From the UHGV virus genome UHGV-0188094: a stretch of DNA of 22,873 nucleotides. One strand, written 5' to 3'. This DNA is from a virus. The notes beneath the pieces were generated by a model. That model had not been told where the DNA came from and did no database searches. It saw only the letters and a program-made list of their open reading frames with translations. Made by a program: the position numbers and the translations under genes. Shown piece after piece: positions 588 to 20,878 of the stretch. Positions within the stretch are counted from its first letter, which is position 1; the number at the start of each line of letters is the position of its first letter.

Positions 588-620
588 GGGGTTACGTGAA
601 AGCGTAGCCCCTTTTTCTTT
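588..620 (+). terminator. Rho-independent terminator following ssrA, lying in element-derived sequence
   Basis: Stem ggggttacg / cgtagcccc (one G-U pair), loop tgaaag, then TTTTTCTTT at 612..620. It starts just after the repeat ends at 581. Confidence 0.6.
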
Positions 621-700
621 GGTAGTGGCGGCAAAATGGCGACAGACTATTGCGTCCATCTTGCCTATCGCCATCTTGAAATCATGCAAAGAGGTTTCAC

Positions 701-1183: not shown

Positions 1184-1211
1184 AAACCTGCCGTAGCAGG
1201 TTCTCTTTCTC
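1182..1211. terminator. Candidate bidirectional terminator between the convergent 160-aa ORF and ogr
   Basis: Hairpin aacctgc-cgta-gcaggtt (1185..1202), flanked by an A-run upstream and a T/C-rich run downstream, so it gives a U-tract on either strand. Confidence 0.5.
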
Positions 1212-1428: not shown

Positions 1429-1496
1429 ATCCAGATCCCTACCTTTGCTATCAGAATCATTGTAATGATACACATAATATCAATATTGAGAACACT

Positions 1497-3639: not shown

Positions 3640-3651
3640 CAGGGTCGGATC

Positions 3652-4320
3652 GGTGAAGTGATCGCCCTTGAGCCTGCGCTGGCAAAATACACCCGACGCG
3701 GATTAGACCTGGATACCTACTGGTTTGTGCAATACGGTATGACAACCCAGCCGTATCAGTTCACGAAAGGCAGCATTTTTCATCTGATGGAACCGGATAT
3801 TAATCAGGAGATCTACGGCCTGCCCGGTTATCTTTCTGCCATTCCGTCAGCCCTGCTCAACGAGTCCGCCACGCTGTTCCGTCGCAAGTATTACATTAAC
3901 GGCAGTCATGCGGGCTTTATCATGTACATGACCGATGCCGCGCAAAACCAGGAGGATGTGAACAACCTCCGCAATGCGATGAAAAGCGCCAAAGGGCCGG
4001 GCAACTTCCGCAACCTGTTTATGTACTCACCTAACGGCAAAAAGGACGGGCTTCAGATTATCCCGTTATCAGAAGTCGCAGCGAAGGATGAGTTTCTGAA
4101 TATCAAAAATGTTAGTCGCGATGACATGATGGCGGCACACCGCGTTCCGCCGCAAATGATGGGGATTATGCCTAATAATGTCGGGGGGTTTGGGGATGTG
4201 GAGAAGGCTAGTAAGGTTTTTGTGATAAATGAATTAATTCCTTTGCAAAAACGATTTAGAGAAATTAATGCATGGCTCGGGGAAAAACTTATAGAATTTT
4301 CTCCATATGAGCTTAACTAA
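3652..4320 (+). pseudogene. P2 gpQ-like portal protein, C-terminal fragment (about 222 aa) fused to the gpN fragment
   Basis: Only the last third of the 443-aa ORF-track entry 2989..4320 is real coding sequence (LEPALAKYTRRGLDLDTYWFVQYGMTTQPYQFTKG...RKYYINGSHAGF...); the rest is antisense to gpN. Opposite-strand placement next to N and next to the cos-like site fits gpQ in a reversed P2 map. Confidence 0.55.
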
Positions 4321-4328
4321 AATATTAG

Positions 4329-4358
4329 TTGCCAGTACCGTATTGTTGCTACTGGCAA
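4329..4358. terminator. Hairpin between the convergent gpQ fragment and the ATPase gene (candidate terminator)
   Basis: Perfect 9-bp arms ttgccagta / tactggcaa with a 12-nt loop, flanked by AT-rich sequence. Confidence 0.35.
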
Positions 4359-4369
4359 TTGTAATAAAA

Positions 4370-6379
4370 TTACAAATATGTGTTGCTATGTAGAGATGTG
4401 TTTATTCCATCTTTTATCTCAATTTTTGACGAAGCATACTCATCATTCGCACTATCATCTATATCAAACTCATCTTGTAGATGAAGTGACTCATTTAACG
4501 GTTTATAAAACTCACCCATCATCATTTTGTAATGGGCAGTATGCTCACTACATTCAAATATCTTCTGAAAAACAATTAAATATTTTTGCACAGACTCCGT
4601 ATCTAAATTCATATAAAGATCATCACCTGCAAAATGGGAACCATCATTAATCCATGATACTAAAGATTTAAATATGATTTTTTCATCACCATAAAAATGA
4701 CACTCAAGCTTCCTAATATCCATCCCACCTAATATCTTAAAGTAATTCTCCAAAATCCTTCGCATTGTATTTTGTATAGTATTATTATTAATGTCTGTTC
4801 TTCTCAATTCGCACCAGAGCAAATCATAAGACGTTTTTATTGGGTTTGATTCGCACTTTTCAAGATATGAAACCTTCCCTTTTTTCCTTACAATCCAAAA
4901 AGTCTCCTCTTTCATTGCTTGATTACCGGATCTTTTGGTATTAAAAGTCAACTCTTTATGAAAATAAATATTATGAGTAAGGAATATAATTTGCTTAATA
5001 TTTCCTTCATCCTTACGAACATCCTCCATTAAATCTTTAATCAACGAACTTACAATAAACAGAATATCACTATCTAAACTTGAAATTGGATCATCAAATA
5101 CTACAACACGATCATCTAAAACACCTGATGCATTATCACTCCCTCTAACAAGGCTATAAAAGTACAAAAAAGTGATAAATGTCTTTTCTCCCTCACTAAG
5201 GGTTGTACGAGCATTATCTCCACTATCTCTCACTATCATATAATGCTTTTTATCTTCGGAGGGTTTTAAGTAAAAATTTTTGAAGCCATAAGAGTCCAGA
5301 ATCTTGTTAATTTTTGTAATAGTTGGAAGAGTACTGGTTTTATTAGACTCAATTGCCTCAATAGCCGAAGTATTTAACATTAACTTCTTTTTGTCTTCTT
5401 CTATCCCAGATTTAAGTCCTTGTAACGTCCTATTAAATTTATCAGATTTGCTACGGTAAGAAGTTATTTCAGACTTTAACTCCACCTTTACGATATATGC
5501 CCATATCTGCTTAGAAAGATTACTAGCCTCTACCTTTCTATTACTATGTATTTTGTTATTATTATCTATCAATAGATTTGAATCATTCAAAAAAGAAATA
5601 AAATCATCAACAACTTCACTTAAGTCACTAAAATGAACTGATTCACTTAAAAAATTGCGTTTATTTTTTGCCAATTCAAAATTCTTGTTTAATTCAGATA
5701 ATACTATCTTAGCCTTATCCTCAAACACTTCATAATTTATGAATGGAGATTTAATCGCCCTTATATCATCTATCGCCTTCAAGATATTATTAAGTTGATA
5801 TTCATATTGTAAAACCAATGCATCGATTTCTCTTTTTTTTAACTCATATGTTTTATCAAAATATGATGAAAGATTATCAAATATATTATCATTTACATCC
5901 TGCTGGCAGAATGGGCACTTGGGATTAGATTTATTGAAATATGTTAAACCCTCCTTAACCCAATCACTGTTATTGAGCATTGTAATTAAGTCTGAAACAC
6001 TAACGTCTTTTTTCCCTAGAATACGCTCACTCCAAATTTCCCTACTCAAAATATCATCTATCCCATTGAAGGATGGAATTGTAATTGATACATGTGATGT
6101 CAATTCAGTAGAAAAAACAATTTTTGCTTTCTCAATTAACTCTGCTATTGAGCAAACTTCTGATGTATTATTTTCATACTCAGCCAACACTCTGGCTTTA
6201 AATTTTTCACTACTATTCCTTAATCCCTCAAAAGCCTTTGAGAACACATTGTCATGTTTTACTTTTTGCTTCCAACATGAATCTTTAAAAGATTTTTCAT
6301 GGTCTTCGATTTTTTTAATAACGCCTAATTCATTATCACCACCATCTATTAACTTTTCCTTTGCTATAATAGATTCCAT
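4370..6379 (-). CDS. ABC-type (PrrC/RloC-like, AAA_13-like) ATPase, C-terminal 669-aa part: CPFC motif, coiled-coil insert, LSEGEK signature, Walker B/D-loop, H-loop, and a C-terminal putative effector domain
   Basis: CPFC at aa 155-158; K/E/N-rich predicted coiled coil at about aa 175-380; TLSEGEK (aa 393-399); VVVFDDPISSLD (aa 425-436); FLTHN (aa 466-470). The C-terminal roughly 200 aa contain R540-x3-E544 followed by His 561 and His 582. Very AT-rich compared with the flanking phage genes. Confidence 0.65.
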   Translation of the reverse strand: MESIIAKEKLIDGGDNELGVIKKIEDHEKSFKDSCWKQKVKHDNVFSKAFEGLRNSSEKFKARVLAEYENNTSEVCSIAELIEKAKIVFSTELTSHVSITIPSFNGIDDILSREIWSERILGKKDVSVSDLITMLNNSDWVKEGLTYFNKSNPKCPFCQQDVNDNIFDNLSSYFDKTYELKKREIDALVLQYEYQLNNILKAIDDIRAIKSPFINYEVFEDKAKIVLSELNKNFELAKNKRNFLSESVHFSDLSEVVDDFISFLNDSNLLIDNNNKIHSNRKVEASNLSKQIWAYIVKVELKSEITSYRSKSDKFNRTLQGLKSGIEEDKKKLMLNTSAIEAIESNKTSTLPTITKINKILDSYGFKNFYLKPSEDKKHYMIVRDSGDNARTTLSEGEKTFITFLYFYSLVRGSDNASGVLDDRVVVFDDPISSLDSDILFIVSSLIKDLMEDVRKDEGNIKQIIFLTHNIYFHKELTFNTKRSGNQAMKEETFWIVRKKGKVSYLEKCESNPIKTSYDLLWCELRRTDINNNTIQNTMRRILENYFKILGGMDIRKLECHFYGDEKIIFKSLVSWINDGSHFAGDDLYMNLDTESVQKYLIVFQKIFECSEHTAHYKMMMGEFYKPLNESLHLQDEFDIDDSANDEYASSKIEIKDGINTSLHSNTYL

Positions 6380-6705
6380 TAGCTTATTTTTTCTTCTTTA
6401 AGAGATATTAGTTTCTCTTCATCCTCCTTAAGATCGCTACCAAGGGTAAATACACCTTTAATTTTATCTTGACTAAAATTTCTTTCAACAAAATCTTTAT
6501 TATATACGTAGCTTATTAAAGATATATTATTTTTCCATTTAATCGGACATGTTGGATATTGTTCAGGGTCATTAATAATTTTACTTATAGTTGTTTTACC
6601 TGCACCATTAGCTCCATATAAATAGTTAAATTTAGAAAGTCCATGTAAAAGCTGCGTAGGGCCATTATATGAGCCTACCTTGTCAATAACTACCTCTTCA
6701 ATCAT
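6379..6705 (-). CDS. N-terminal Walker-A part (108 aa) of the same ABC-type ATPase, separated from the downstream ORF by a frameshift (TAATG overlap)
   Basis: P-loop YLYGANGAGKTT at aa 28-39; RBS GAGGA upstream of the ATG at 6705. The stop TAA shares its last A with the ATG of the 669-aa ORF. One extra A in the A6 run (6387..6392 on the plus strand) would fuse the two into a single ORF of about 778 aa. Confidence 0.6.
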   Translation of the reverse strand: MIEEVVIDKVGSYNGPTQLLHGLSKFNYLYGANGAGKTTISKIINDPEQYPTCPIKWKNNISLISYVYNKDFVERNFSQDKIKGVFTLGSDLKEDEEKLISLKEEKIS

Positions 6706-6840
6706 CCTCTAATCCTCAAAAAACAGATTAATCCTATCAAATCAATGATAATAGAAGACATTACTTACCTAATTACAAGGTGATCATTTATACAGCTGTA
6801 AATAAATCAGGCTAATCATCTATTTGTCATAACGCGCGCT

Positions 6841-6859
6841 CGTATCCCCGCCACGCCTG
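6841..6859 (-). other. cos-like site (186-type cohesive-end core), inverse orientation
   Basis: The reverse complement of 6846..6857 is GGCGTGGCGGGG, which equals the first 12 nt of the 186 cohesive end as I remember it (GGCGTGGCGGGGAAAGCAT). The downstream bases diverge. Confidence 0.45.
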
Positions 6860-6901
6860 CCCGCTTTATGTAGTGGTTTTCATGCACCTGCATGATCTAC
6901 G

Positions 6902-6926
6902 CAAAAGCCCGCCAGTTCTGGCGGGC
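6902..6926 (-). terminator. Rho-independent terminator for the leftward A / tum-like / DinI-like transcript
   Basis: On the minus strand: stem GCCCGCCAG ... CTGGCGGGC followed by TTTTG (plus-strand aaaagcccgccagttctggcgggc). Confidence 0.65.
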
Positions 6927-7061
6927 CTTAGCAAAAACGATCCTCAAACGATCATGCGATCTCATGCGGCATAGACATGCACTACAGAGCTAACGCCTCG
7001 CAAGGGCTCGTTGTTCAACCTTGCTGACGCCAGAAGCAAGTTCAGACGCCAGCAACGTTTC

Positions 7062-7295
7062 TTAATGCAGCCAGCTGTCGTCTTCCCACACCTTCTGCAT
7101 AATTTTCATCACTTGTTTTCTTTCTTCGTCCAGTTGCAGTCCGGTTAGTTCCACACCGTTAGAGCTACCTTTGCGAATGCGAATTACCGTTTTGGGATAC
7201 AGGGGGCGCAGATTGCGGTAAAGCTCGGATTCAAGGGCGTCCAGGGTAGACTGGCTAATCTTCTGCTCTTTATCGATCATTATTTCAATGCGCAT
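7062..7295 (-). CDS. DinI-family protein (77 aa), as in the SOS-induced Tum/DinI modules of 186-like phages
   Basis: MRIEIMIDKEQKISQSTLDALESELYRNLRPLYPKTVIRIRKGSSNGVELTGLQLDEERKQVMKIMQKVWEDDSWLH follows the DinI pattern (MRIE..., hydrophobic core, C-terminal W and acidic tail). RBS GAGGTG lies upstream of this internal Met. Confidence 0.75.
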   Translation of the reverse strand: MRIEIMIDKEQKISQSTLDALESELYRNLRPLYPKTVIRIRKGSSNGVELTGLQLDEERKQVMKIMQKVWEDDSWLH

Positions 7296-7305
7296 AAAAG
7301 TCACC

Positions 7306-7494
7306 TCAGCTGATGACATCCATTGAGTGGTTGTATTCGTGGGTTCTGATTTTTGCCATGAGTTCATCAGTCAATTCAGAAACCCACTGTAGAGCCAGCC
7401 CCTTCTCTTCATCACTACACTCACTAGCCGCTACAAGCTTAAGAAAAAAATCAATGCGCTGGAGCTTCAAAGACTCCAAAAAATAGTCCTGCAT
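7306..7494 (-). CDS. Small hypothetical protein (62 aa) immediately downstream of a LexA box; possible Tum-like antirepressor partner
   Basis: ORF starting MQDYFLESLKLQRID... with RBS GGAGG 6 nt upstream of the ATG at 7494. Position matches the SOS-regulated right-end operon of 186. Confidence 0.5.
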   Translation of the reverse strand: MQDYFLESLKLQRIDFFLKLVAASECSDEEKGLALQWVSELTDELMAKIRTHEYNHSMDVIS

Positions 7495-7535
7495 CTTTCC
7501 TCCTATGACACCACACGCAATACTGTATGTATAAC

Positions 7536-7555
7536 CACTGTTTATATTTACAGTA
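7536..7555 (-). promoter_or_regulatory. LexA (SOS) box overlapping the promoter of the tum-like / DinI-like operon
   Basis: CTGT-N8-ACAG with an AT-only spacer (cactgtttatatttacagta), about 45 bp upstream of the 62-aa ORF start. Confidence 0.6.
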
Positions 7556-7647
7556 TATAATAATCTTACTGATGTAAAACGTTTTTTTACATTCATCAGC
7601 CTGATATGCCTGGTATTATTAAGAGCACGAATTGTTAACCCGCGTAA

Positions 7648-10062
7648 TTAATACAGGTTCCGCCACTGATCATCTTCCTGCAAACGCTGGTTCCGATAGA
7701 AGATACGCAGGCCTGCTCCTGACGGAATACTGCCTCCGCGAAGGAGTAAATCGATCTCTTTCTCGCTGCCATCAAATCCTCTGGACTTCAGCTCATACAC
7801 GAGCTGCAGTCGCTGATGGTCTGTAATTCGCTGTTTGTAGTCTTTACGCCGTTTCGGTTTCACCAGGCGTAACCTTGCTGCCAGTTCCCGGCGCTCTTTT
7901 TTGCTCATACTGTGCAGGTAATCGTGCAACTCCTTGTCATCCATGCTGGTAATGTCCGTTCTGGGGTCCCCATCAGCTGATTTATCTTTCTCCTGTTGGT
8001 TCAAATTTTCAGCAAGGGGACAGTTATTGCCACGAGTCCAAGGGGCGCAAGCGCCCTGGTCGGCTGCCGCCTCCTGAACGTCAACGGCCTTACGAACCAT
8101 TTTCCACTTCACTGCATGAGTGCAGATCTTGCCCTCTGCAATGGGTGACCAGATGCCATAAATACGAATGCCGTGATCGCCATAGGCGGTCGGCTCTTCG
8201 TTGATTTCATAAGCGGTTCTGATCAGGTGATATTTGCGGGGAACCAGTACGCCGCCCTGCTTCATGATGTAGGTGGCAAAACAACCAGCATCAGCAGCAG
8301 CCAGGATTGCATCAAGGCGCGGGTTATCCAGTACCGGCGCACCTGCTTTTTTGTCCCCCTGTTGCCTTGCCGCCTGACCAGCCAGCAATCGCAGTTCACG
8401 GTAAGCCTGACGCCCCGGAATGCCAAAGAAGCGGAATTGCTGAACACGATGCAGAGACGCCCAGGCATTAACGTATTCAGCATTATCACGCAGGGATTTC
8501 CCCGTTTCCTTGCTGATCTCGCCAGCCAGACCACGCCCGTCAATGTTCTTACTGATGTATTTCGCGATGTAGCTTGTTGGCGTACCTTTGCGCGGGTTAA
8601 TCAACTCAGACTTAAAGCGCGGCCCAGTGTTATTGCCCAGCTCCTCGCGGTCTTCACGGATGGCAAACTTACGCAGTAATACAGTGATGGCGCGGCGGTC
8701 TTTTTTGCGCATAAAACACAACAGGTGCCAGTGAACTGTACCGTCATGATGCGGCTCAGCCACCCGCACGCCATACCAGCGCAATCCGGCTTTGTGCATC
8801 GCCTTACGAAATGCAGCAAACATGCCGACCAGGTAATCACTACTTTGTCTTACCGTCGCATTTGTCCAGGTTGGGTTGGGCCTGCCGTTATTTAGCGTGG
8901 AATGGAAACGTGACGGACAGGTGATGGTGTAGAAAACGGCACAGTCACTGCGCATTTCAGCGATAAGCTCCAGACCTTTAACACAGGCCATCATCTCATT
9001 GCGGCGATGCGCCGGGTTGCTGCTGCTGGCGTTTACCACATCTTCCATATCCAGCGTGTCACCGTCTTCGTTCACCAGTTCATGAGAACGGAAAAACTCC
9101 AGCGACTTACGGCGCTGCTCACGTTTATGCATCACGGCTTCATAGCTGACATAGGGAGATGCTTTTTTGCTGACCAGACAGACAGCACGCAACTGCTCTT
9201 CCCGCCATTCGCAACGCATCTTCCATAATTTCCTATACCACCAGTCGGCGCACAGCATACGCGCCAGCGAACCCGGAATGAGTTCATAGGGCACGGGTTT
9301 ACGGCGGTTTCTTTTCCGACGGAGTTGCTCAAACGCAGGCGGGATGACATCCAGTCGCAGGGTTTCTGCTGCCACCTTTTCCCATGTCTTGCGGATTTCT
9401 TCTGGCTTAACATCATCGGTGGCGTACAAATCACCACAAGCGGCATCAAGACACATGCTCATATGCGCAGCGACAAGAGTAGACAGGCGTTTCACCTGAT
9501 CCTGACTCATTTCAGGCAGGATCAGCAGGCCGTCCAGCCCTTCATGGCTTGCCATAAAGCGAAAAGAAGTGGATAGCTGACTCTCGCGTACATGCTCCAG
9601 TCGTTCCAGACATGGCTTAATCGTCTCACGCAAATAGCGGGAATAAGCCTTTGGCCTGCCCAGGCTGCTGAAGTATTCGATACGTTGCATCAGCGGCTTG
9701 CTGATGTGGGTGGGCTGGGCGCTGACATCTGCCAGAATGACCATGTCTGGGTTAAAACGCTGCTGCTCATGCGCCAGCTTTGCCCGACTAATGAGCTTAT
9801 CCTGCTCCATTTCGCGCTGGACAGGATCACGGGATTCATTAAAGAAATAACGCTCCCAGACCTGATCACTCAGTGCCTCACGGCGCAGCAGTTCCTGCTC
9901 GTTATCGGCAGCGTACAGAGTGATCAGGTTTGAAAGCGCAGAAACCGGCGCAACTTCCGCCGGGTCCAGATAAGGGTTAATGGCCTTTTTCGGGCTGTTC
10001 CATGAGAACGATGCGGAAGCCTCGTTAAAGCCGCAGCAGTTGTTCATATCGGCATGGTTCAT
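7648..10062 (-). CDS. P2/186 gpA-type replication initiation protein (rolling-circle endonuclease), 804 aa
   Basis: Large ORF in the position of gene A downstream of the lysogeny-switch genes. Identification is from recalled family resemblance and synteny. Its ATG overlaps the stop of the upstream Dam-like gene (ATGA). Confidence 0.8.
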
Positions 10063-11018
10063 GCACGTACTCCGTACACGGCAGAACTATCCACGCCACG
10101 CGAATAATCAAATCCCACCCAGCAGCGCGGCCCGGAAACAGCGATGATTTCTGTTGCAGATTTACTCTCACCAGCTGCTACGCCGATGCTGCGTTTTGCC
10201 TTGATGTAGTGGTGAGTAAAATTGCGATACAGCGAACGGATCAGGGATGTGTCACTGTTAGAAATAATGACCGGATGTCCTTCTGATGACCGATGTTCAA
10301 GAACGGATGCCAGGTGATACTGGTCATCTTCAGTGAAGCCGTCAGTGTGATAACCGGAAAACGTGCCGTCATACGGCGGATCGCAATACACCACATCCCC
10401 CGCCTTCAACATCGCCAGCGTTTCATCAAAGCTGGCGCAGATAAACGTTGCCCGCTGGGCTTTTTCTGCAAATGCGCGAATTTCTTTTTCAGGAAAATAC
10501 GGATTTTTATAATTACCGTAGGGAATGTTGAAATGCCCGCTCTTGTTATAGCGACATAAACCACGGTAACCGTGACGATTGAGATACAGGAAATATACCG
10601 CTTTCATGAAATCAGTAATTTCAGTTGAGTAATTAAACTCCTGCCTTATGTTGTAATAAGCCACCTCCCTGTTTGCTTCCTCAAATAAAGCTCTGGCGCG
10701 AGATATAAACGATTCACAATCAGCAGCAACCTTTTTATAGAGGTTGATTAAATCAGGATTAATATCCGCAACAAGATAGCTGGGGTAGTGGATCTCCTGC
10801 GCTTCGTTCTGGATTGCTTCAGCGGTCACACGCAGCAGTTCTGCCGCTTCGACGTGGTTTAGCTGGCGGGATGTGATATGACACGCAAGACTATCAAGGC
10901 GGGCAGCCATTGCTTCAGCCCTTGCCCGGCGTTCTTCCAGACGAGCCTCTGTCAGTAAAATATTAAGCCCTGCGTCATCCGGTCCGATTTTAGTCGTGAG
11001 GGTTTCAATATTACGCAT
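10059..11018 (-). CDS. Dam-like N6-adenine DNA methyltransferase homolog with a replaced N-terminus that lacks the AdoMet-binding motif I
   Basis: The region [15 protein letters not shown]...[36 protein letters not shown]...[17 protein letters not shown]...PVIISNSD aligns to E. coli Dam from about residue 50 onward, including the DPPY catalytic motif. The first roughly 85 aa are Ala/Glu-rich helical sequence with no FxGxG or W-GGK motif. Start taken at the ATG at 11018 (RBS AGGAGA). Confidence 0.7.
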
Positions 11019-11085
11019 AATCAATTCTCCTGAATTTAGATAAAGGGATGCCCGGCGGGTTTACGCCATTAATTTCATTAGCTGG

Positions 11086-11427
11086 TTAATTCGGCATGGT
11101 TAGCCGTCTGGGAAATAAGCTCACCACTGCACGAAAATGATTCATTGCTTTAATCAACTCCCGCTTTTCGTCAGTGGTCAGCTCATTAATGCTGATGCTA
11201 TGACGTTCAGCTGGAATTTTTGCCATAAAGAATATGGCAGCCAGTGCCCGTTTATTTTGTTCGCTATTAATATCCCGTGGATCACGCATATCTTTAATAA
11301 ACCGCTCAAGCTCTGACTCAATATTAAGACCAAAAACTTTCGCTCTTAATTCCGCAATGTGATTAAGTCCATTCAGGCGTTCACCGGGGCTTAATGGAAC
11401 AGTCGCCGCAGCGCCTTCAATAGCCAT
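11086..11427 (-). CDS. Hypothetical phage early-region protein (113 aa)
   Basis: ORF with RBS GGGGGA 4 nt upstream of the ATG, in the early rightward operon between cII/fil and A. Confidence 0.5.
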   Translation of the reverse strand: MAIEGAAATVPLSPGERLNGLNHIAELRAKVFGLNIESELERFIKDMRDPRDINSEQNKRALAAIFFMAKIPAERHSISINELTTDEKRELIKAMNHFRAVVSLFPRRLTMPN

Positions 11428-11591
11428 TTGTTCCCCCGTTTTTTCGTTGATAGTTCTGCCAACAATTCATCTTGCGAACGGCACGGATGCCAGCGTTTAC
11501 CATCCTCACCCATGATCCAGCCGTGACCGTAGTGCATTGCCGGACTTTGTTTTACCAGCAGCGATGCAAATGATGGTTCTTTCGTCAGCAT
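11391..11591 (-). CDS. Small early-region protein (66 aa), at the position of 186 fil
   Basis: Internal Met (MLTKEPSFASL...) with RBS GAGGTG; starts 8 nt after the cII stop. Overlaps the next ORF by 37 nt in a different frame. Function is assigned by position only. Confidence 0.4.
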   Translation of the reverse strand: MLTKEPSFASLLVKQSPAMHYGHGWIMGEDGKRWHPCRSQDELLAELSTKKRGNKWLLKALRRLFH

Positions 11592-11598
11592 AAGCACC

Positions 11599-12108
11599 TC
11601 ACAGCAAACCGAATGAAGCACCGAGGCCAGTCACGGTATCAACTGCACTCGCCATCGCAGGATTAGCCTGTAAACGGGCCTGCAATGAAACAGCCGCCAG
11701 CGCCATCAGTCGTGTAACAGAGTTAATGCTGCTGATCGCATCACGACGGCCTGCACTGGTTTTTACATCGCCAGAAACCGCACCTGCCGCAACACGCCCG
11801 ATCTCTGCGGTTGCACTCATGACGTAATGTGGCAGTTTCTCTTTTGCTACCTCATTAATCGGTACACATGGCAGGCAGTGAATCTGTGCCAGAAAACCAT
11901 CTATCAGCGTTGAGTCTTCTGTCAGATCGGTAAGCAGCCAGATTTCTGGCGCATTGAGCTGATGCGGTTGATCTGGGTTGAGTTTGTTTCGCAGTGTCTG
12001 AACATTCATTCCTGCACGTTCTGCCAGCTTCGCCATATTGTGATGTAGTGCAAAAGCTCTACAGGCTTCATCAAAATGCGGGTGTTTGGAAATCTTATAA
12101 TCAAACAT
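11599..12108 (-). CDS. cII: 186 CII-like transcriptional activator (169 aa)
   Basis: Same length as 186 CII; N-terminal HTH region ...AKLAERAGMNVQTLRNKLNPDQPHQLNAPEIWLLTDLTEDSTLIDGFLAQIHCLPC...; sits after apl as in 186. Confidence 0.8.
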   Translation of the reverse strand: MFDYKISKHPHFDEACRAFALHHNMAKLAERAGMNVQTLRNKLNPDQPHQLNAPEIWLLTDLTEDSTLIDGFLAQIHCLPCVPINEVAKEKLPHYVMSATAEIGRVAAGAVSGDVKTSAGRRDAISSINSVTRLMALAAVSLQARLQANPAMASAVDTVTGLGASFGLL

Positions 12109-12140
12109 GCTACCCCCTTAGAAAGTTCTCATAATTGAAC

Positions 12141-12383
12141 TTACTTACCAACAATGACGCGGAAGTTGGAATGACCGAGGGATTCACGGACCTGATCGGT
12201 TTTGTACATTAAATAACGCAGGCTTACGCGGCCTTTGTTTTTTTCTTTCTTGACCATGTATTTAGCAAGCTGACCATGGTGAATTTTTTGATACACGGAG
12301 CCGCGGGAGATACCTTCCCATTCCGCGAACTCAGCAGGCGTTGCCATCTCTTTTGGTACACGAATTGAAATATCAGTACTCAT
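12141..12383 (-). CDS. apl: Apl/Cox-type excisionase and switch regulator (80 aa)
   Basis: Small HTH protein (ATPAEFAEWEGISRGSVYQKIHHGQL), first gene of the operon divergent from cI, as with 186 apl and P2 cox. Confidence 0.65.
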   Translation of the reverse strand: MSTDISIRVPKEMATPAEFAEWEGISRGSVYQKIHHGQLAKYMVKKEKNKGRVSLRYLMYKTDQVRESLGHSNFRVIVGK

Positions 12384-12499
12384 AGTGCAGTATCTCTTAG
12401 TTTGGTTTCGTTTTATCTTGTTTTATGTGGTTTGGTTTTGCTTTTCAAACCATAAATGGATATTAGGATCACTTTTTATATACGTCAAGAGGTTTGATT
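12384..12499. promoter_or_regulatory. Divergent promoter/operator region of the lysis-lysogeny switch (pR/pL analog)
   Basis: 116-bp intergenic region between the divergent apl and cI genes, with iterated ggttt/gttttg motifs. Individual promoter hexamers were not resolved. Confidence 0.5.
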
Positions 12500-13132
12500 A
12501 TGAGTTTAATAAAGGCGGGAAATGATAGTGGTGGGCGCGATGCAATTAACAGGCTTATTAAGGCTTACAACTTCAGCTCACGACAGCAGCTCTGCGAACA
12601 TCTGGAAGTATCAAAAAGCACTATGGCTAACAGATACTTAAGGGATAGCTTTCCTGCCGAATGGGTAATTCAATGTGCCCTTGAAACAGGAGCTTCCCTT
12701 CTATGGCTGGCTACTGGTCAAGGAGATATGTATGCGTGTGAGAACGAAGAAACAAATCTCAAAAATGAACCTCCTGTCACTGTAAGACCACTTTCTAAGA
12801 TCGTTGCTCCTAGCATCAAACGTGTTGAACTGAAGAACGGCGAACTGCAGCCAAGTGATGAAATTCTTCTTGATAGCAGCCTGCTCGATGGTGACTCATC
12901 CAACGCTTTATTTGTTAAAACAGCTAATAATAGCTTTGTAGTGGATACGTCCGTTAAACAAGTCAGTAATGGCTTCTGGTTAGTCGATATGGACGGAGTT
13001 AAAAGCATCGTTAAAATTGCGCGCATACCCGGAAACAAAATAGTAGTTAACCAAGATGACACTTCATTTGAATGTTCTGTAGATGATGTGGAAGTCGTAG
13101 GACGTGCAGTCAAAGTAATCAAGAACCTCTAA
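12500..13132 (+). CDS. cI: CI-type immunity repressor, two-domain (186 CI-like), about 210 aa
   Basis: N-terminal HTH (SSRQQLCEHLEVSKSTMANRYL...) resembling P2 C and 186 CI, plus a C-terminal domain. ATG at 12500 is preferred over the TTG at 12494 because of the RBS AAGAGG 7 nt upstream. Co-oriented with and just upstream of int. Confidence 0.7.
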   Translation: MSLIKAGNDSGGRDAINRLIKAYNFSSRQQLCEHLEVSKSTMANRYLRDSFPAEWVIQCALETGASLLWLATGQGDMYACENEETNLKNEPPVTVRPLSKIVAPSIKRVELKNGELQPSDEILLDSSLLDGDSSNALFVKTANNSFVVDTSVKQVSNGFWLVDMDGVKSIVKIARIPGNKIVVNQDDTSFECSVDDVEVVGRAVKVIKNL

Positions 13133-13135
13133 CTT

Positions 13136-14155
13136 ATGACCATCAGAAAACAGCCGAACGGAAAATGGTTGTGTGAGTGCTATCCCAATGGACGCAATGG
13201 TAAGCGCGTGCGTAAGCAATTTGCTACCAAAGGCGAAGCCATTGCGTTTGAAAGCTTCACAATGGAAGAAGTGAACAAAAAACCGTGGTTAGGAGAAAAG
13301 GATGATCGGCGACACCTATCAGAATTAATTGAGCTTTGGTATTCCCTGTATGGTCAGACACTCGCAGACCCCAAGCGCCTCATGGCGAAACTTAGAATTA
13401 TCTGTAATGGTCTAGGCGACCCCATCGCCTCAGAACTGACAGCCGGTGACTTTACGAAATACCGCGAAGCACGGTTAAAAGGTGAAGTACGAAATGAAGA
13501 TGGGACGCTTATGTCGCCCGTTAAGCCCCGCACGGTAAACCTCGAACAGCGCAATCTATCATCGGTGTTCGGTACATTAAAAAAACTAGGACACTGGTCA
13601 GCACCAAACCCGCTGGCAGGACTTCCAACCTTCAAAATTGCCGAAGGTGAGCTGGCTTTTCTTTCCATGGACGAAATCAAGCGCCTGTTGGCTGCATGTG
13701 CTGAATCTCAAAGCCCCAGCTTATTAATGATTGCCAAAATATGTTTGGCTACCGGCGCACGTTGGAGCGAAGCCGAAAACCTGCATGGCCACCAAATATC
13801 GAAATACCGAATTACTTATATAAAGACAAAAGGTAAGAAAAACAGAACAGTACCGATATCACAGGAACTATATGACGAACTCCCCAAGCACAGAGGGAAG
13901 TTATTCACGCCATGCAGAAAAGCCTTTGAGCGTGCAGTAAAGCGGGCCGGTATTGAACTTCCGGAGGGGCAATGCACCCATGTATTACGTCATACATTCG
14001 CCAGCCATTTTATGATGAACGGCGGAAACATACTGGTACTACGCGATATTCTGGGCCATGTGGATATAAAAATGACGATGATTTATGCCCACTTTTCCCC
14101 TGACCACCTAGAAGATGCGGTAACAAAAAACCCACTGTTTAATTTAAAATGGTAA
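13136..14155 (+). CDS. int: P2/186-type tyrosine integrase (339 aa)
   Basis: N-terminus ...GRNGKRVRKQF..KGEA.AFE... and C-terminal motifs ...ATGARWSEA..., ...HVLRHTFASHF..., ...GHVDIKMTMIYAHF parallel P2 Int (R, H-x-x-R, catalytic Y). Confidence 0.85.
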   Translation: MTIRKQPNGKWLCECYPNGRNGKRVRKQFATKGEAIAFESFTMEEVNKKPWLGEKDDRRHLSELIELWYSLYGQTLADPKRLMAKLRIICNGLGDPIASELTAGDFTKYREARLKGEVRNEDGTLMSPVKPRTVNLEQRNLSSVFGTLKKLGHWSAPNPLAGLPTFKIAEGELAFLSMDEIKRLLAACAESQSPSLLMIAKICLATGARWSEAENLHGHQISKYRITYIKTKGKKNRTVPISQELYDELPKHRGKLFTPCRKAFERAVKRAGIELPEGQCTHVLRHTFASHFMMNGGNILVLRDILGHVDIKMTMIYAHFSPDHLEDAVTKNPLFNLKW

Positions 14156-15690
14156 ATTTAACGATGAAAAGATTGAAATCAGTTTCCGATGCAGTTATCC
14201 AACTCAGATTAAATGCGGTAAAAGCAAGTATTCAAAGCGTCAATCCAAACGAGTTTATAACACATTGCCTTGATTATAACCTCCAGAAATTTAACAATCA
14301 GCTTGAAATGTTACAACACCTACCATGGGTTGTGAATTTATGCATTAAATGGTCCGCCAGTGCGCTGGGTAAAAAACGGAAATTTAAACATATTGACAGA
14401 CCTGGTGCTGTCAGGTTGCTACAACGAGCATATGAGGAACTAAGTATAATTCCAACTGGTCTGGAAAATATAGACAAAGGGATTAACTTTTTCCTTAGAA
14501 ATACGTTATATCAACAAGGTATTTATCAAAGATTAGATGCTTTAAATACAATTAGCAGACAAGTTTTCTTGTTTTCTTCCTTAGATGACAACAATAGAAT
14601 CAAGCGTAGATTCAAAGAACTTACTGATGTTGATATAAACGATTTTCTAAAACTATCATTTGTGTTAGTATCACTCGTTACCTTACAAGCACCAGTAAAG
14701 AAAATAACAATAGATTCTTTCGCAGCTCTTTACTCCGTAATACCTAAAGATACAATCGAGAAATTTCTGAATACTATATCTATCCCTTACGAAGAACTAG
14801 CTCGGTTTTGCTGTACAAAAGATAATGAGACACCTTTAGTAGAATATTATGCTCCATCGCCTTTCTTAGAAAAACCTTTCATCAAATTCGAAGGAAATTA
14901 TCACCAAATACATACGCAGCTAACTTCGACCAGTATACAAACCTTTATATATGATTTGCTTCGCAGAGATGATGCAGAATCGTTCATGGACAAATTTGGG
15001 CGAGTTTTCGAAAATGCAGTCAACCAGCTATTAGATGAAAGTGGAATTGCTTATATTGCTGAAGGAAATTTAAAAGAATATCTACCTCAAGAGAATAAAG
15101 TTGTAGATTTTCTACTACCTCATGATGAAGCTAACATTTTCATCGATGCTAAAGGTGTTGAGATAAACCAAAAGGGAATGGTTACACTACGACCAGGGGA
15201 TATTTCTGCCAATATAAAAAGCTCCGTATTAAAAACTATAGAACAAGCACACTCAGTAAATAGAGAGCTAATTAAAAAAGGTAACCAAAATTTTTCTTTT
15301 AAAAAAGAGTCCTACATTTTATGTCTTACTTATAAAAATTTATTCCTTGGAAATGGTACATTTCTAAATAAATCCTATGCTAACATCGAAATGAAAAAAA
15401 TCCGAGATAGGCATTCAGAAGAATATCAAATACCTGATGAGAACATTTTCTGCATATCATTTGAGGAATTCGAGTATCTGCTATCTTCTTGCAAGGAATA
15501 CTCAAAACCTGTACATGAGGTACTGCGAGAAGCTGTAGTTAGAAACCAAACACCATCAAGTGCAGTTTTCCTTTTTGCACATCATATCCGTGACTCATTC
15601 CCCAAAATACGTTCATCTGAGATCGTCAGGCTCGCAGGCTTGAGCGAGATCAACCATATCGTTGAACGATTAGAGCAAGCTGGCTCTTGA
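14149..15690 (+). CDS. Cargo protein (513 aa) with a central PD-(D/E)xK-like nuclease motif; function unknown, candidate defense or abortive-infection factor
   Basis: AT-rich ORF whose ATG overlaps the last codons of int. Candidate motif E305 ... VVD320FLLP ... IFID333AK335 (about 15046..15170). No family recognised by eye. Confidence 0.55.
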   Translation: MVNLTMKRLKSVSDAVIQLRLNAVKASIQSVNPNEFITHCLDYNLQKFNNQLEMLQHLPWVVNLCIKWSASALGKKRKFKHIDRPGAVRLLQRAYEELSIIPTGLENIDKGINFFLRNTLYQQGIYQRLDALNTISRQVFLFSSLDDNNRIKRRFKELTDVDINDFLKLSFVLVSLVTLQAPVKKITIDSFAALYSVIPKDTIEKFLNTISIPYEELARFCCTKDNETPLVEYYAPSPFLEKPFIKFEGNYHQIHTQLTSTSIQTFIYDLLRRDDAESFMDKFGRVFENAVNQLLDESGIAYIAEGNLKEYLPQENKVVDFLLPHDEANIFIDAKGVEINQKGMVTLRPGDISANIKSSVLKTIEQAHSVNRELIKKGNQNFSFKKESYILCLTYKNLFLGNGTFLNKSYANIEMKKIRDRHSEEYQIPDENIFCISFEEFEYLLSSCKEYSKPVHEVLREAVVRNQTPSSAVFLFAHHIRDSFPKIRSSEIVRLAGLSEINHIVERLEQAGS

Positions 15691-15819
15691 TTGCACAATT
15701 GCAAATTGGCGACAAATTGGCGGCAGAGCATTAAAAATGCGTAAAATAAACAAACACCAAATAATACTAATATGCTGTTTTAAAACATAAATATATGTTT
15801 TTATCATAATAATAATGGT

Positions 15820-15868
15820 ATGTAGGAATTTCGGACGCGGGTTCAACTCCCGCCAGCTCCACCAAATA
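15820..15868. repeat. attR of the P2/186-type prophage and attL of the downstream island: second copy of the 49-bp ssrA 3' end
   Basis: Identical to 533..581. Confidence 0.85.
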
Positions 15869-15898: not shown

Positions 15899-15933
15899 AA
15901 GCCCGCACAGCACAAGCTCTGCGGGCTTTTTTA
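15899..15933 (+). terminator. Rho-independent terminator after the second ssrA 3'-end copy
   Basis: Stem gcccgcacag...ctctgcgggc followed by TTTTTT (15927..15932). Confidence 0.6.
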
Positions 15934-16030
15934 CGTCTATTGTAGTCTAGTGAGAATTGCTGAGAACTACGAGTTATGGCACCCTGAATGGGACCCACGA
16001 AGATGGGTCCTAAAATCGAGGGTCCCAAAC

Positions 16031-17260
16031 ATGGCCAAAATCGCTAAGAAGCTCACTGACACTGAAATCAAAAGCACCAAACCTGCCGAAAAAGAGGTTA
16101 ACCTTTTTGACGGCGATGGTTTGCTGTTGCGAATCGCTCCCCTGGCGAAGGGAGGGAAGAAAAATTGGTATTTCAGATATGCAGTGCCTGTGACCAAAAA
16201 GCGAACTAAGGTGAGCTTAGGAACCTATCCTCACCTTACACTTGCGAAGGCACGAGCTTTACGTGATGAATACTTGTCGTTGCTTACAAATGGTATAGAC
16301 CCCCAAGTTCATAACAACCAAAAAGCCAATGCACTGAAAGATGCCACGGAACATACATTTCAAGCAGTAGCCAAGAAGTGGCTTGATGAGAAAGTCAAAA
16401 CGTCAGGCATCTCCCAAGATCATGCTAACGACATCTGGCGAAGCCTAGAGAGAAATATCTTTTCCACATTGGGTGATACCCCAATTAAGGAGATTCGCCC
16501 TAAAATGCTTAAACAGCATTTAGAACCCATAGAAAAACGAGGTGTCCTTGAAACACTTCGCCGCATCATATCCCGCCTGAATGAAATTTTCCGCTATGCA
16601 GCAACAGAAGAACTCATAGAATTCAACCCGGCAGACAACCTGGGGCAACGGTTCAGCAAGCCAAAAAAACAGAATATGCCAGCATTACCCCCTTCCGAAC
16701 TCCCTCGCTTCTTGGTTGCTCTAAACAATGCTTCTATCCGTTTGGAAACAAGGCTACTGATTGAGTGGCAACTTCTCACATGGGTTCGCCCAGGTGAAGC
16801 TGTTCGCACAAGATGGTCAGATATTGATATTGAAACTGGCATGTGGAACATCCCGGCGGAGTTTATGAAAATGAAGAAGCCTCACAAAGTTCCACTGAGC
16901 AAAGAAGCTTTGCGAGTTTTGGATTTAATGAAAGTCATCAGCGGGCATAGAGAGTGGGTGTTCCCCAGTATCAAAGCTCCACTCAATCACATGCATGAAC
17001 AAACAGCTAATGCGGCCATAATCCGTATGGGTTTCGGAGGTGAGCTTGTAGCTCACGGTATGCGATCCATTGCTAGAACGGCTGCTGAGGAGTCTGGCAA
17101 GTTTAGGACTGATGTCTTAGAAGCCGCCCTTGCCCACTCGAAGAAAGATGAAATAATTGCAGCCTACAATCGTGCAGAGTATCTCACTGAACGGGTGGTT
17201 CTCATGCAATGGTGGAGTGACTATGTTTCGTCTCAAAAATGCAAAGTTATTGCCGCATAA
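16031..17260 (+). CDS. P4-family tyrosine integrase (IntA/SlpA-like)
   Basis: MAKIAKKLTDTEIKSTKPAEKEVNLFDGDGL..., ...DIWRSLERNIF..., ...VPLSKEALRVLD..., ...HGMRSIARTA..., ...AYNRAEYLTERVVLMQWW are P4-integrase hallmarks. Start taken at the ATG at 16031; the ORF track's upstream GTG at 15950 would run into the terminator. Confidence 0.85.
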   Translation: MAKIAKKLTDTEIKSTKPAEKEVNLFDGDGLLLRIAPLAKGGKKNWYFRYAVPVTKKRTKVSLGTYPHLTLAKARALRDEYLSLLTNGIDPQVHNNQKANALKDATEHTFQAVAKKWLDEKVKTSGISQDHANDIWRSLERNIFSTLGDTPIKEIRPKMLKQHLEPIEKRGVLETLRRIISRLNEIFRYAATEELIEFNPADNLGQRFSKPKKQNMPALPPSELPRFLVALNNASIRLETRLLIEWQLLTWVRPGEAVRTRWSDIDIETGMWNIPAEFMKMKKPHKVPLSKEALRVLDLMKVISGHREWVFPSIKAPLNHMHEQTANAAIIRMGFGGELVAHGMRSIARTAAEESGKFRTDVLEAALAHSKKDEIIAAYNRAEYLTERVVLMQWWSDYVSSQKCKVIAA

Positions 17261-17323
17261 CTCTCCCATGATGGATTAACTATCTTGATTTAGTTAAAGA
17301 ATTAATAATCACACCATTAACCT

Positions 17324-17372
17324 ATGTGGACTAAGCATAGCCATTTACAAATGGGGACATTGAGTCCACATA
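17324..17372. repeat. Composite 49-bp palindrome upstream of the serine recombinase gene (candidate recombination or operator site)
   Basis: Outer arms tatgtggact / agtccacata and inner arms ccattt / aaatgg, placed symmetrically around a central AC dinucleotide (17348..17349). Confidence 0.5.
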
Positions 17373-17542
17373 ACGAAAGCTGTCGGTCATATCAGCTAAA
17401 TAATTCACATCTCTTCTCGATTATCATACACCTCGAAGATCTACCAAATTCGCTCTAATCAATGATAAAACAGTTGAATTCGGTTGAAATTTGATCAATT
17501 TTATCCACTACATTGTATTGAATCATCCATGAGGTTTCGTGC

Positions 17543-19099
17543 ATGGCTAGCGAAAATGACAAAAATCATAGAGTTAGGGTCGCGCAGTACTTGAGGATGT
17601 CTACCGACCATCAGCAATATTCTTTACATAATCAGTCCGAATATATCAAAGATTATGCTGAAAAGAACAATATGGAAATCGCTTATACCTACGATGATGC
17701 AGGTAAGAGCGGAGTCAGTATCGTAGGCAGGCATTCTTTGCAGCAGTTACTTAGCGATGTAGAACAAAAGAAAATAGATATACAGGCTGTATTATTTTAT
17801 GATGTGAGCCGTTTTGGTCGTTTTCAAAATAGTGATGAAGCGGCATATTATTCCTTTCTATTTGAGAGAAATGGTGTAGATCTTATATATTGTTCCGAAC
17901 CTATACCCACTAAAGATTTCCCTTTAGAGTCCTCTGTTATACTGAATATAAAAAGATCTAGTGCTGCATATCACAGCAGGAATCTATCTGAAAAGGTATT
18001 TATAGGGCAAGTAAATTTAATAAAGCTTGGTTATCATCAAGGCGGTATGGCTGGTTATGGGCTGAGACGTCTTTTAGTAGACGAAAATGGCATAGCTAAA
18101 GAAATATTGAGTTTCCGCAAAAGAAAGAGTATTCAAACAGATAGGGTAATATTAATTCCGGGACCAAAAAATGAAATAAAAATTGTAAATAGAATATATG
18201 ATCTCTTTATAGATAATAACGTCCCAGAATTCATTATTGCTGAGAGATTAAATGAACAGAACATACCTGCAGAAAATGGAACATTATGGACTCGTGCAAA
18301 AATACATCAAATTTTGACAAATGAAAAATATATTGGAAACAACATATATAACAAAACCTCATCTAAATTAAAAAGTAGGCTTGTAAAAAACCCCAAACAT
18401 GAATGGGTTAGATGTGACAAGGCATATAAACCTATTATTTCAAAGAAAAAATACAATAAAGCTCAAGAAATAATTCAGCTCCGATCCATTCATTTGACTA
18501 ATGAAGATCTATTAGAAAAACTAAAACAAAAATTAGAATCTAATGGAAAACTATCAGGCTTTATCATTGATGAAGATGATACAGGCCCTTCATCTTCTGT
18601 TTATAGAACCCGATTTGGTGGTCTTTTAAGAGCATATACTTTGATTGGTTATAAGCCAGAACATGATTACAGCTATCTCAAAATAAATGAAGCACTAAGA
18701 TCATTTTACTCAGAGATAATTGAGGATTTTAAGGGTGAAATTTTAAAAAGTAACTGTCATATAGACGAGTATAAATATGCCCCAATGCTTTACATCAATG
18801 ATGAGTTTTTAATTTCCGTCCTTGTTACTAAATGCATACATATGAAATCAGGTAAACTTAGATGGAAAGTCCGGTTTGATAACTCACAGAAAGCAGACAT
18901 AACAATTGTTATACGAATGAATTCACAAAATATTTCACCTCTTGATTTTTATATCATACCAAAGATTGAAAACGAATATAATAAAATGTGCATGACGGAA
19001 ACAAACAACATTCGATTAGATCTCTATAGATTTGATAATCTTGATAAACTTCTACAAATTATTACTCGCATGAAAGTGAGGGAACTATATGCTGCCTGA
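17543..19099 (+). CDS. Large serine recombinase (518 aa)
   Basis: N-terminal resolvase catalytic domain (VAQYLRMSTDHQ with the catalytic Ser; ...DDAGKSG...; ...FYDVSRFGRF...) followed by a recombinase-type domain (GYGLRRLL...). RBS GAGG 8 nt upstream. Confidence 0.8.
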   Translation: MASENDKNHRVRVAQYLRMSTDHQQYSLHNQSEYIKDYAEKNNMEIAYTYDDAGKSGVSIVGRHSLQQLLSDVEQKKIDIQAVLFYDVSRFGRFQNSDEAAYYSFLFERNGVDLIYCSEPIPTKDFPLESSVILNIKRSSAAYHSRNLSEKVFIGQVNLIKLGYHQGGMAGYGLRRLLVDENGIAKEILSFRKRKSIQTDRVILIPGPKNEIKIVNRIYDLFIDNNVPEFIIAERLNEQNIPAENGTLWTRAKIHQILTNEKYIGNNIYNKTSSKLKSRLVKNPKHEWVRCDKAYKPIISKKKYNKAQEIIQLRSIHLTNEDLLEKLKQKLESNGKLSGFIIDEDDTGPSSSVYRTRFGGLLRAYTLIGYKPEHDYSYLKINEALRSFYSEIIEDFKGEILKSNCHIDEYKYAPMLYINDEFLISVLVTKCIHMKSGKLRWKVRFDNSQKADITIVIRMNSQNISPLDFYIIPKIENEYNKMCMTETNNIRLDLYRFDNLDKLLQIITRMKVRELYAA

Positions 19100-19985
19100 A
19101 AAAAATGAATTCCCAATAATTCAAATTGAGATTGCAAAAATAAAATTTCTTAACCCACGAACAAGAAATAAGGTAGTGCATGAAGAAATAAAGGAAAGCA
19201 TAAAAAAAAGAGGATTAAGCAAGCCAATAAGCGTAAGAGCTATTGATGAAGGCGATTTCAAATATGCTTTAATTTGTGGTCAAGGGAGAATAGAGGCTCT
19301 CGTTGCATTAGGTGAAACTATTATTCCAGCAATTATAAGAGATGTATCAGAAGAAGATGCTTACGTTATGAGTTTAGTTGAAAACATTGCAAGGAGAAGA
19401 CCACGTTCTAATGAGTTATTACAGGTGATTAAAGACATGAAAATCAGAGGACTTTCAGACTCCGAAATAAGTGAGATTACTGGATATTCATCGAACTGGG
19501 TGAGCAGTATTAATATGCTACTTGATAAGGGAGAGCATAAACTTCTCTCAGCAGTCGAACGGGGTAATTTGCCTCTGTATCTCGCAGTGCAATTTGCAAG
19601 ATGTGAAACTGAGGAAGCACAAGATATTCTTACCGAAGCATATGATAAAAAATTAATAAAAAGTCGGGACATTATAAAGATAAAACACATTCTAAATCAA
19701 AGAACAGTTGGGAATAAAGGTGCAAAAGCAGCCGGATTTTATTATCACAAACCATCAAAAAGGATGACTGCAGAGGAGTTGATTGAGCTTTATGAAAATA
19801 GTATCGCTGAACATAAATCTGTTTATAACAACTCAAAATTCATAAAAACCAACCTACTAATAGTAAATGAGATTTTTAACATCATAATGATGAATAAAAG
19901 CTTTCAACATATACTTGAACAAGAGAATCTTTCAGAACTACCATCTCAGATATTAACCCCAGTAAACAAAGAGGTATTAAAATGA
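19089..19985 (+). CDS. ParB/Srx-domain DNA-binding protein with HTH (298 aa), first of two
   Basis: N-terminal ParB-like motif (...KPISVRAID...LICGQGRIEALVALG...) and an HTH (GLSDSEISEITGYSSNWVSSI). Its ATG lies 8 nt upstream of the recombinase stop, so the reading frames overlap by 11 nt. Confidence 0.65.
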   Translation: MLPEKNEFPIIQIEIAKIKFLNPRTRNKVVHEEIKESIKKRGLSKPISVRAIDEGDFKYALICGQGRIEALVALGETIIPAIIRDVSEEDAYVMSLVENIARRRPRSNELLQVIKDMKIRGLSDSEISEITGYSSNWVSSINMLLDKGEHKLLSAVERGNLPLYLAVQFARCETEEAQDILTEAYDKKLIKSRDIIKIKHILNQRTVGNKGAKAAGFYYHKPSKRMTAEELIELYENSIAEHKSVYNNSKFIKTNLLIVNEIFNIIMMNKSFQHILEQENLSELPSQILTPVNKEVLK

Positions 19986-20878
19986 TTCAGATACGTTTTG
20001 GCGATAATTTTATTTACCTGGAAACTAATAAGTTAATTCCATCTAAGGAATTATTAGAAAACGTAAAGCGAAGCCATAAATATCATCAAATAGTTACCTC
20101 TATCGAAAGCTTAGGTATTATTGAACCAATAATAGTATTCTATGACAAAGATAAAGATGTCACTAAGATACTTGATGGCCATTTAAGGGTTGAGGCTTTA
20201 AAAGACTTAGGTATAGAAAAAGCTCCATGTATACTTTCGAGCATAGATGATGCTTTCACTCCTAACAAACAAGTGAATCATATAAATGTAGTTGAAGAAC
20301 ATAGAATGATAATTAAGTCTCTGGCAAAAGTATCAATTGAAAAACTTAGTGCTGCTTTGGGCATATCTGTTGATGCCATAAAAGATAAAGCGAATGTGAT
20401 GAACGGCATAGATCCAAGTGTAATTGCGAAACTTTCTGATAAACCTATACCTAAGGCTACATTTGACGTTTTGAGGAAAATGAAGCCAATTCGCCAAATT
20501 GAAGCAGTCGGTACAATGATTAATTTTGATAATTATAGTAAAAAATTTGCAATGAGCATCTTGGATGCAACACCGGCATCGATGATAGTAAATAAAGGGA
20601 AAAACACTCCCTATAAAAAGGACATAAAAAAAACCATACTTCGTCTGGAACAAGAAATGGCAACAACTTCGGAAGAAACGAAAAAGCTTCAAACCGAGTA
20701 TGGTTCAGATATGTTGAAATTCGTTATAATCCAGTCATATATTAATAAATTACTTGGCAATTCTAAAGTTCTTCATTGGTTCTTAGAAAACGAGGTTGAT
20801 TATCTTAATGAGTTAAAAAGAATTTCTAGAATAAATTCTTTGGATGATAAGACTCTTACTGAAAACAGCAAGTCATAG
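19982..20878 (+). CDS. ParB/Srx-domain DNA-binding protein with HTH (298 aa), second of two
   Basis: N-terminal ParB-like motif (...ILDGHLRVEALKDLG...) and an HTH (SIEKLSAALGISVDAIKD). ATG overlaps the upstream stop (ATGA). Confidence 0.65.
   Translation: MIQIRFGDNFIYLETNKLIPSKELLENVKRSHKYHQIVTSIESLGIIEPIIVFYDKDKDVTKILDGHLRVEALKDLGIEKAPCILSSIDDAFTPNKQVNHINVVEEHRMIIKSLAKVSIEKLSAALGISVDAIKDKANVMNGIDPSVIAKLSDKPIPKATFDVLRKMKPIRQIEAVGTMINFDNYSKKFAMSILDATPASMIVNKGKNTPYKKDIKKTILRLEQEMATTSEETKKLQTEYGSDMLKFVIIQSYINKLLGNSKVLHWFLENEVDYLNELKRISRINSLDDKTLTENSKS

Follow-up and report, generated by a model that had tools for sequence, protein, structure and literature searches.

A GapS1-family anti-phage gene as exchangeable int-att cargo of a 186/P2-like prophage remnant

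The int-att locus and its gene

The window analysed here is the whole 22,873-nucleotide stretch of the virus genome UHGV-0188094, which carries a decayed 186/P2-like prophage at ssrA, and the subject of this report is the AT-rich gene wedged between the integrase gene (int) of this prophage and its right-hand attachment (att) site. An earlier note, made by reading the letters of the sequence, had described an AT-rich open reading frame (ORF) of 513 amino acids at this place, had pointed to a nuclease motif within it, and had proposed a sensitive profile search, a structure prediction with fold comparison, and a survey of the int-att junction in related prophages, all of which were run. The wedged gene belongs to the GapS1 (GAPS1) family, a single-protein anti-phage defence system, and is called gapS1 below. 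The features that make up the locus are the following.

533 to 581, plus strand: left-hand att core, the 3' end of an intact ssrA (transfer-messenger RNA at 215-577)
13136 to 14155, plus strand: prophage tyrosine integrase, an ORF with the RefSeq name 'site-specific integrase' and tyrosine recombinase matches
14137 to 15706, unstranded: cargo slot, delimited by blastn against the empty-slot relative L002, of which it replaces about 29 bp; GC content 0.346
14149, plus strand: alternative upstream ATG of gapS1, giving 513 amino acids and overlapping the int stop
14164 to 15690, plus strand: gapS1 coding sequence, 508 amino acids and a stop; assigned to NF047931, with the start used by RefSeq and by the cloned active construct
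15707 to 15819, unstranded: AT-rich phage arm of the attachment site, 113 bp, GC 0.27, conserved
15820 to 15868, plus strand: right-hand att core, a duplicated ssrA 3' end that matches 533-581 as a perfect direct repeat of 49 nt

The reading frame, the base composition and the att repeat confirm that an uninterrupted AT-rich ORF lies between the integrase and the right att site, running from 14149 to 15690 on the plus strand and encoding 513 amino acids when counted from the first ATG. Its GC content is 0.35, and 0.28 at third codon positions, whereas int has 0.46 and the replication gene A 0.53, and a variable spacer of 16 nt (15691-15706) separates its stop from the phage arm. The product stands alone, given that it measures 508 or 513 amino acids, that its gene is flanked by int and by the att arm, and that the slot of other prophages holds the GapS1 gene by itself.

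The start of the gene had been placed at the first ATG, which overlaps the int stop, and this is probably wrong. The second ATG, at 14164, lies on the same strand 8 nt beyond the int stop, and is probably the functional start, because the RefSeq annotation of identical DNA begins there (MKRLKS...), nearly all homologues begin at the equivalent position, and the synthetic gene of the published experiments, which is active, begins atgAAAAGATTGAAATCAG, i.e., at ATG 14164. The 513-residue form is used by some depositors; its residues 1-9 are disordered in the AlphaFold model, and no good Shine-Dalgarno sequence is present at either ATG. The start at 14149 was thus judged less likely, and the overlap with int is probably not real. 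Residues are nevertheless numbered below on the 513-residue form, except where the 508-residue form is named.

Assignment to the GapS1 family

The protein had been reported as having no obvious family, whereas a curated one exists and is matched over the full length of its profile. The NCBIfam model NF047931, 'antiphage_GapS1', is matched at 401.6 bits (E 4.5e-120), well above its curated cutoff of 320 bits, with profile positions 1-455 of 455 aligned to residues 24-479. RefSeq also uses the name gapS1 where DNA of 100% identity occurs in the two complete genomes of E. coli BEN5202 and Ecol_AZ147, and a sequence identical to the gapS1 of the window occurs on 153 contigs. In its 508-residue form the protein is identical at 507 of 508 positions to EJP5250929.1, the sole difference being E152K in 508-residue numbering, and the two fall in the same 90% cluster.

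An exhaustive profile search returned 1401 cluster representatives at E <= 1e-3, and the best 150 of these are mostly of about 500 amino acids and match in one stretch, the shorter ones looking partial. A search for related loci found GapS1 homologues at 15 loci in distant phyla, with no Vibrio among those 15. Pfam-A gave nothing beyond sub-threshold noise for the protein (TPD, PilX, PrgX), and neither a relative among the chain sequences of the PDB nor a GapS1 structure was present in the PDB copy searched. PADLOC-DB 2.0.0 (2023) likewise returned no match to the protein or to a 58%-identical allele; this silence is a gap in the database, because that release predates GAPS1, and it is not evidence against a role in defence.

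Predicted active site and fold

The protein divides into two regions, whose limits, together with the codons of the motif described in the earlier note, are as follows.

14188 to 15042, plus strand: N-terminal all-helical domain, residues about 14-298, modelled by AlphaFold mostly at a predicted local distance difference test (pLDDT) value above 85
15046 to 15468, plus strand: PD-(D/E)xK nuclease core, residues about 300-440
15061-15063, plus strand: catalytic codon E305
15106-15108, plus strand: catalytic codon D320
15145-15147, plus strand: catalytic codon D333
15151-15153, plus strand: catalytic codon K335

The residues E305, D320 and D333-A-K335 lie where they had been read, and their conservation goes far beyond chance. 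In an alignment of the query with 100 representatives (101 sequences in total, the representatives being 21-57% identical to the query), D320 and K335 are invariant in all 101, as are Q123, P243 and Q366, while position 333 has D in 77 sequences and E in the other 24, and E305 is found in 98. The 15 residues from D320 to K335 equal the spacing between D313 and K328 of the Vibrio GAPS1. Taken with the structural model, this pattern identifies E305, D320, (D/E)333 and K335 as the predicted PD-(D/E)xK catalytic site of the GapS1 family.

The AlphaFold model of the 513-residue protein has a pLDDT of 84.6 and a predicted template modelling score of 0.87. In this model, E305 starts a helix (305-311), D320 stands just before a strand (321-324), and D333 and K335 lie inside another (329-335), which gives the alpha-beta-beta-beta core of the PD-(D/E)xK superfamily, where the second strand opens with an acidic residue and the third carries the (D/E)xK signature. 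The nearest folds are those of DNA restriction and nicking endonucleases, and Holliday-junction resolvases are found among the weak Foldseek matches. Of the earlier description of a beta-rich context typical of restriction-endonuclease-fold nucleases, the fold therefore held good, but the motif region is not simply beta-rich, the canonical residues being carried by one helix and two strands.

The N-terminal helical domain had no convincing fold or sequence match in Pfam-A, the PDB sequences or the fold search. It is presumed to be the sensor or regulatory part, given that the system consists of a single protein, a point that Mahata et al. discuss.

Relation to characterised GAPS1 proteins

In the description of Mahata et al. 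(bioRxiv 10.1101/2023.03.28.534373), GAPS1 is a single protein with a PD-(D/E)xK domain that defends against many coliphages, the prototype being encoded in Vibrio parahaemolyticus VPaI-6 (WP_005477165.1), where defence is lost in the D313A and K328A mutants. The same authors found that T7 escapes through mutations in its capsid gene 10 (gp10 I217T and V247A), and that the T7 capsid protein together with chromosomal GAPS1, with no phage DNA present, stops growth and brings about dormancy. Three E. coli homologues were cloned, including EJP5250929.1, and gave protection against diverse coliphages, and in a natural E. coli isolate a gapS1-dependent growth arrest was seen at a multiplicity of infection of 5. 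The family is also known outside prophages, in GMT islands (10.1101/2023.03.28.534373).

Given that it is identical at all but one residue to the protective EJP5250929.1, with which it shares family and start, the gene of the window is, as far as its sequence can tell, essentially an already validated defence gene, and the suggestion that a lysogen might use it for superinfection exclusion or abortive infection is supported to the same extent. The protein resembles the Vibrio prototype in being a single polypeptide of about 500 amino acids with a PD-(D/E)xK domain in its C-terminal half and the same D-to-K spacing; unlike the prototype, with which its identity is about a quarter according to that preprint, it is encoded not in a GMT island but in a 186/P2-like prophage remnant at ssrA.

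A PD-(D/E)xK enzyme might also be thought to clear the infection by cutting phage nucleic acid while sparing the host, in which case dormancy would be a side effect of overexpression. The resemblance of the model to DNA restriction and nicking endonucleases speaks for such direct clearance, but growth stops in the presence of the T7 capsid protein and chromosomal GAPS1 without any phage DNA, and the natural isolate arrests its own growth upon infection in a gapS1-dependent manner, so that we consider this explanation unlikely.

An exchangeable cargo slot

The gapS1 gene is an exchangeable cargo between int and the att site of an ssrA-integrated 186/P2-like prophage. The clearest case is the ssrA prophage of E. 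coli GDSC2227PM (L002), which has nothing between int and the att arm, and in which blastn homology to the window stops at 14136 and returns at 15707. The flanks of the slot are 79-89% identical among relatives, and the phage arm is 87-89% identical across them regardless of the cargo, while the content of the slot is absent or different. That the gene would prove to be variable cargo had been anticipated in the earlier note, and the survey of related prophages bears this out. A conserved phage core gene was ruled out, given that close relatives have an empty slot or other genes in it.

The annotation of the slot was surveyed in the 60 best-matching complete genomes. It reads gapS1 in 5 of these, an anti-phage dCTP deaminase in 3, HNH proteins in another 3 and nothing in 2, the remaining genomes having a 'hypothetical protein' of one of several sizes. 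Among the loci compared individually, one (L004) holds a GapS1 allele that is 58% identical to the protein of the window, another (L006) an HNH_2 protein, and E. coli 600468 (L003) a dCTP deaminase at 2661-4418 of its locus, on the strand opposite to int. Five slot genes of other E. coli are unannotated, with the following positions in their own loci.

L007, 2341 to 3543: 401 amino acids
L025, 1436 to 2491: 352 amino acids
L023, 1584 to 2510: 309 amino acids
L024, 1464 to 2129: 222 amino acids
L026, 1865 to 2440: 192 amino acids

None of these five has a Pfam family, and the 401-residue protein, the one scanned against NCBIfam, has no family there either. Against PADLOC, the 309-residue protein gave a weak match to a 2TM effector and the 222-residue protein a marginal match to Cas2 (E 0.007), which is probably spurious, with nothing for the others. 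The five genes are reasonable candidates for new defence genes.

The same arrangement occurs in Klebsiella. In the Peduoviridae phage ST437-OXA245phi4.1 (NC_049448), gp47 to gp49 are a repressor, an integrase and a GapS1 homologue on one strand, with an overlap of 4 nt between the last two; the gene order is that of the window, the proteins being 52% identical, the homologue being labelled 'hypothetical protein' and the record being of full length (39.6 kb). A further 12 Klebsiella phage records have a GapS1 homologue at their very end.

In the literature, the slot between int and att counts as a minor defence hotspot of P2, holding 3% of the P2 defence systems (NAR 2026, PMC13586616), and the main text of that paper, to which our search was confined, does not mention GAPS1. 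Among the systems of cultured phage genomes GAPS1 is listed. The classical hotspot of P2-like phages is the gpA-gpQ locus, with tin and old (Rousset et al. 2022, PMC9122126). The slot of the window resembles the P2 hotspots in being a short gap between conserved phage sequences in which defence systems of one gene or of small size rapidly replace one another; the element differs from one with a single hotspot in that it has a second cargo, the candidate system PDC-S06, in the classical gpA-gpQ position as well.

The same evidence bears on the idea that the nuclease serves the life cycle of the prophage, through excision, recombination or replication, and has no part in defence. The gene adjoins int and the attachment site, and its fold is of the restriction-endonuclease or resolvase type, the Holliday-junction resolvases having appeared among the weak matches; on the other hand, close prophages manage without a gene in the slot or with unrelated ones, the anti-phage dCTP deaminase included, the family is not confined to prophages but extends to GMT islands and to distant phyla, and a near-identical protein is protective by itself when encoded on a plasmid. 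We regard this explanation as hardly credible, and a role in excision or recombination was rejected in view of the empty or differently filled slots.

Proposed expression with the lysogenic operon

Upstream of int lies the repressor gene, the first gene of the presumed cI-int-gapS1 operon.

12500 to 13132, plus strand: 186-type CI repressor, RefSeq 'phage repressor protein CI'

In phage 186, cI and int are transcribed from the lysogenic promoter pL. This promoter faces the lytic pR and is repressed by Apl, and the attP of the phage contains arm sites for Int, sites for integration host factor, and Apl operators (PMC7498355). By analogy with this phage, and with gapS1 following int on the same strand after a gap of 8 nt, it is plausible that the lysogenic transcript continues through cI and int into gapS1 as its third gene. 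A consensus scan found no promoter-like or terminator-like site on the plus strand between int and gapS1, the counts of the whole scan being at chance level (13 promoter-like sites where 9.8 +/- 3.3 were expected, and 3 terminator-like sites where 3.1 +/- 2.0 were expected). The first terminator-like site downstream of gapS1 is the terminator of ssrA, at 15914-15928.

Proposed mechanism

In the reading that we favour, with a probability of about 0.88, GapS1 is a nuclease in which a helical sensor is joined to a PD-(D/E)xK effector, which arrests growth when triggered by a capsid protein, and which is carried as cargo on the cI-int transcript. The N-terminal helical region of about 300 residues would keep the protein inactive and presumably sense the infection, and the C-terminal PD-(D/E)xK phosphodiesterase domain, with E305, D320, D333 and K335, would act as the effector. 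If the Vibrio prototype is a guide, the nuclease would be activated by a structural protein of the infecting phage, which for T7 is the major capsid protein, upon which the infected cell would stop growing, the production of phage would be blocked and the population would be protected. Transcribed behind cI and int from the lysogenic promoter, gapS1 would be expressed constitutively in the lysogen or the remnant, and would be shut down with its promoter on induction. Other abortive or dormancy systems that sense capsids and act through nucleases, for example those of the Lit, CapRel and Avs types, share the logic by which a conserved phage structural protein is sensed and a toxic effector is thereby switched on; their sensor and effector domains are unrelated to those of GapS1, and the searches brought up no relation in sequence or fold.

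Several points weigh against this reading. Both the capsid trigger and the dormancy come from the Vibrio prototype, whose identity to the E. coli homologues is no more than 24-29%, while the growth arrest in E. coli was seen with another allele, WP_194242909.1 (10.1101/2023.03.28.534373). For the allele of the window, capsid sensing and dormancy are accordingly expected by inference from the prototype, and the published protection belongs to EJP5250929.1, which is one residue (E152K) away. The equivalence of D320 and K335 to D313 and K328 is suggested by equal spacing and family-wide conservation. As regards expression, the promoter scan, with its counts at chance, is weak evidence for the lack of a separate promoter, and the carrier is a degraded element of 15 kb, in which regulation may differ from that of the intact phage.

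A more tentative idea, which we hold to be possible with the odds against it, is that the int-att position in ssrA-integrating 186-like prophages places defence genes in general on the cI-int transcript, whereby they would be on in the lysogen and turned off by Apl on induction, and the phage would then not set off a capsid-sensing nuclease with its own capsid. That such a turn-down on induction would help a capsid sensor to avoid the phage's own capsid is speculation. If the idea is true, the five unannotated slot genes of 401, 352, 309, 222 and 192 amino acids would be defence systems under the same control. The dCTP deaminase of E. coli 600468 is antisense to int, so that the cI-int transcript cannot account for the expression of all the genes that occupy the slot.

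GapS1 is a known system, given that its family was already named, curated and validated and that the slot had already been described as a hotspot. The value of the case is that of a control, in which the reading of raw sequence alone had found the defence gene, its catalytic residues and its status as cargo.

The carrier element

The element between the att cores (582-15819) measures 15.2 kb. The tail and lysis genes and most of the head genes are gone from it, and a fragment of gpD (1497-2597) abuts a fragment of a P2-family capsid gene (2977-3639) and of a portal gene (2989-4320). No complete RefSeq E. coli genome has this shortened form over 80% of positions 1-13000 of the window. The carrier is thus a decayed prophage that has retained its immunity region, its int and two cargo loci.

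This state of the carrier raises the question of whether gapS1 is a silent passenger of the remnant, intact by chance and without useful expression. The small size of the element, the fragmentary gpD, capsid and portal genes, and the splitting of the other cargo, PDC-S06, into two ORFs all lend some weight to this view, but the gapS1 ORF is complete, its sequence recurs unchanged in intact prophages (that of BEN5202 being one) and on the 153 contigs, and the upstream cI and int are intact, so that the presumed promoter and operon are preserved. We consider a silent passenger quite improbable.

Neighbouring loci

The second cargo lies at 4370-6705 on the minus strand, in the classical gpA-gpQ hotspot, with a GC content of 0.30, and was identified by PADLOC as the candidate system PDC-S06, with an AAA_13/PrrC-like ATPase. 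It is split into ORFs of 108 and 669 amino acids, joined at a TAATG junction at 6379, which could be either a gene disrupted by a nonsense mutation or a natural two-ORF form.

Directly past the right att core begins a second integrase, of the P4 type (15950-17260); behind it come a large serine recombinase (17543-19099) and two ParB/RepB-like genes (19089-19985 and 19982-20878), in DNA with GC contents of 0.31-0.37. The stretch 15950-20878 is a tandem island at ssrA.

Finally, at the left end of the element, an ORF of 160 amino acids adjoins ssrA (701-1183, plus strand), the product of which, in its C-terminal part, weakly resembles PADLOC PDC-S48 and the C-terminal regions of the DEDDh exonuclease and LigA models.

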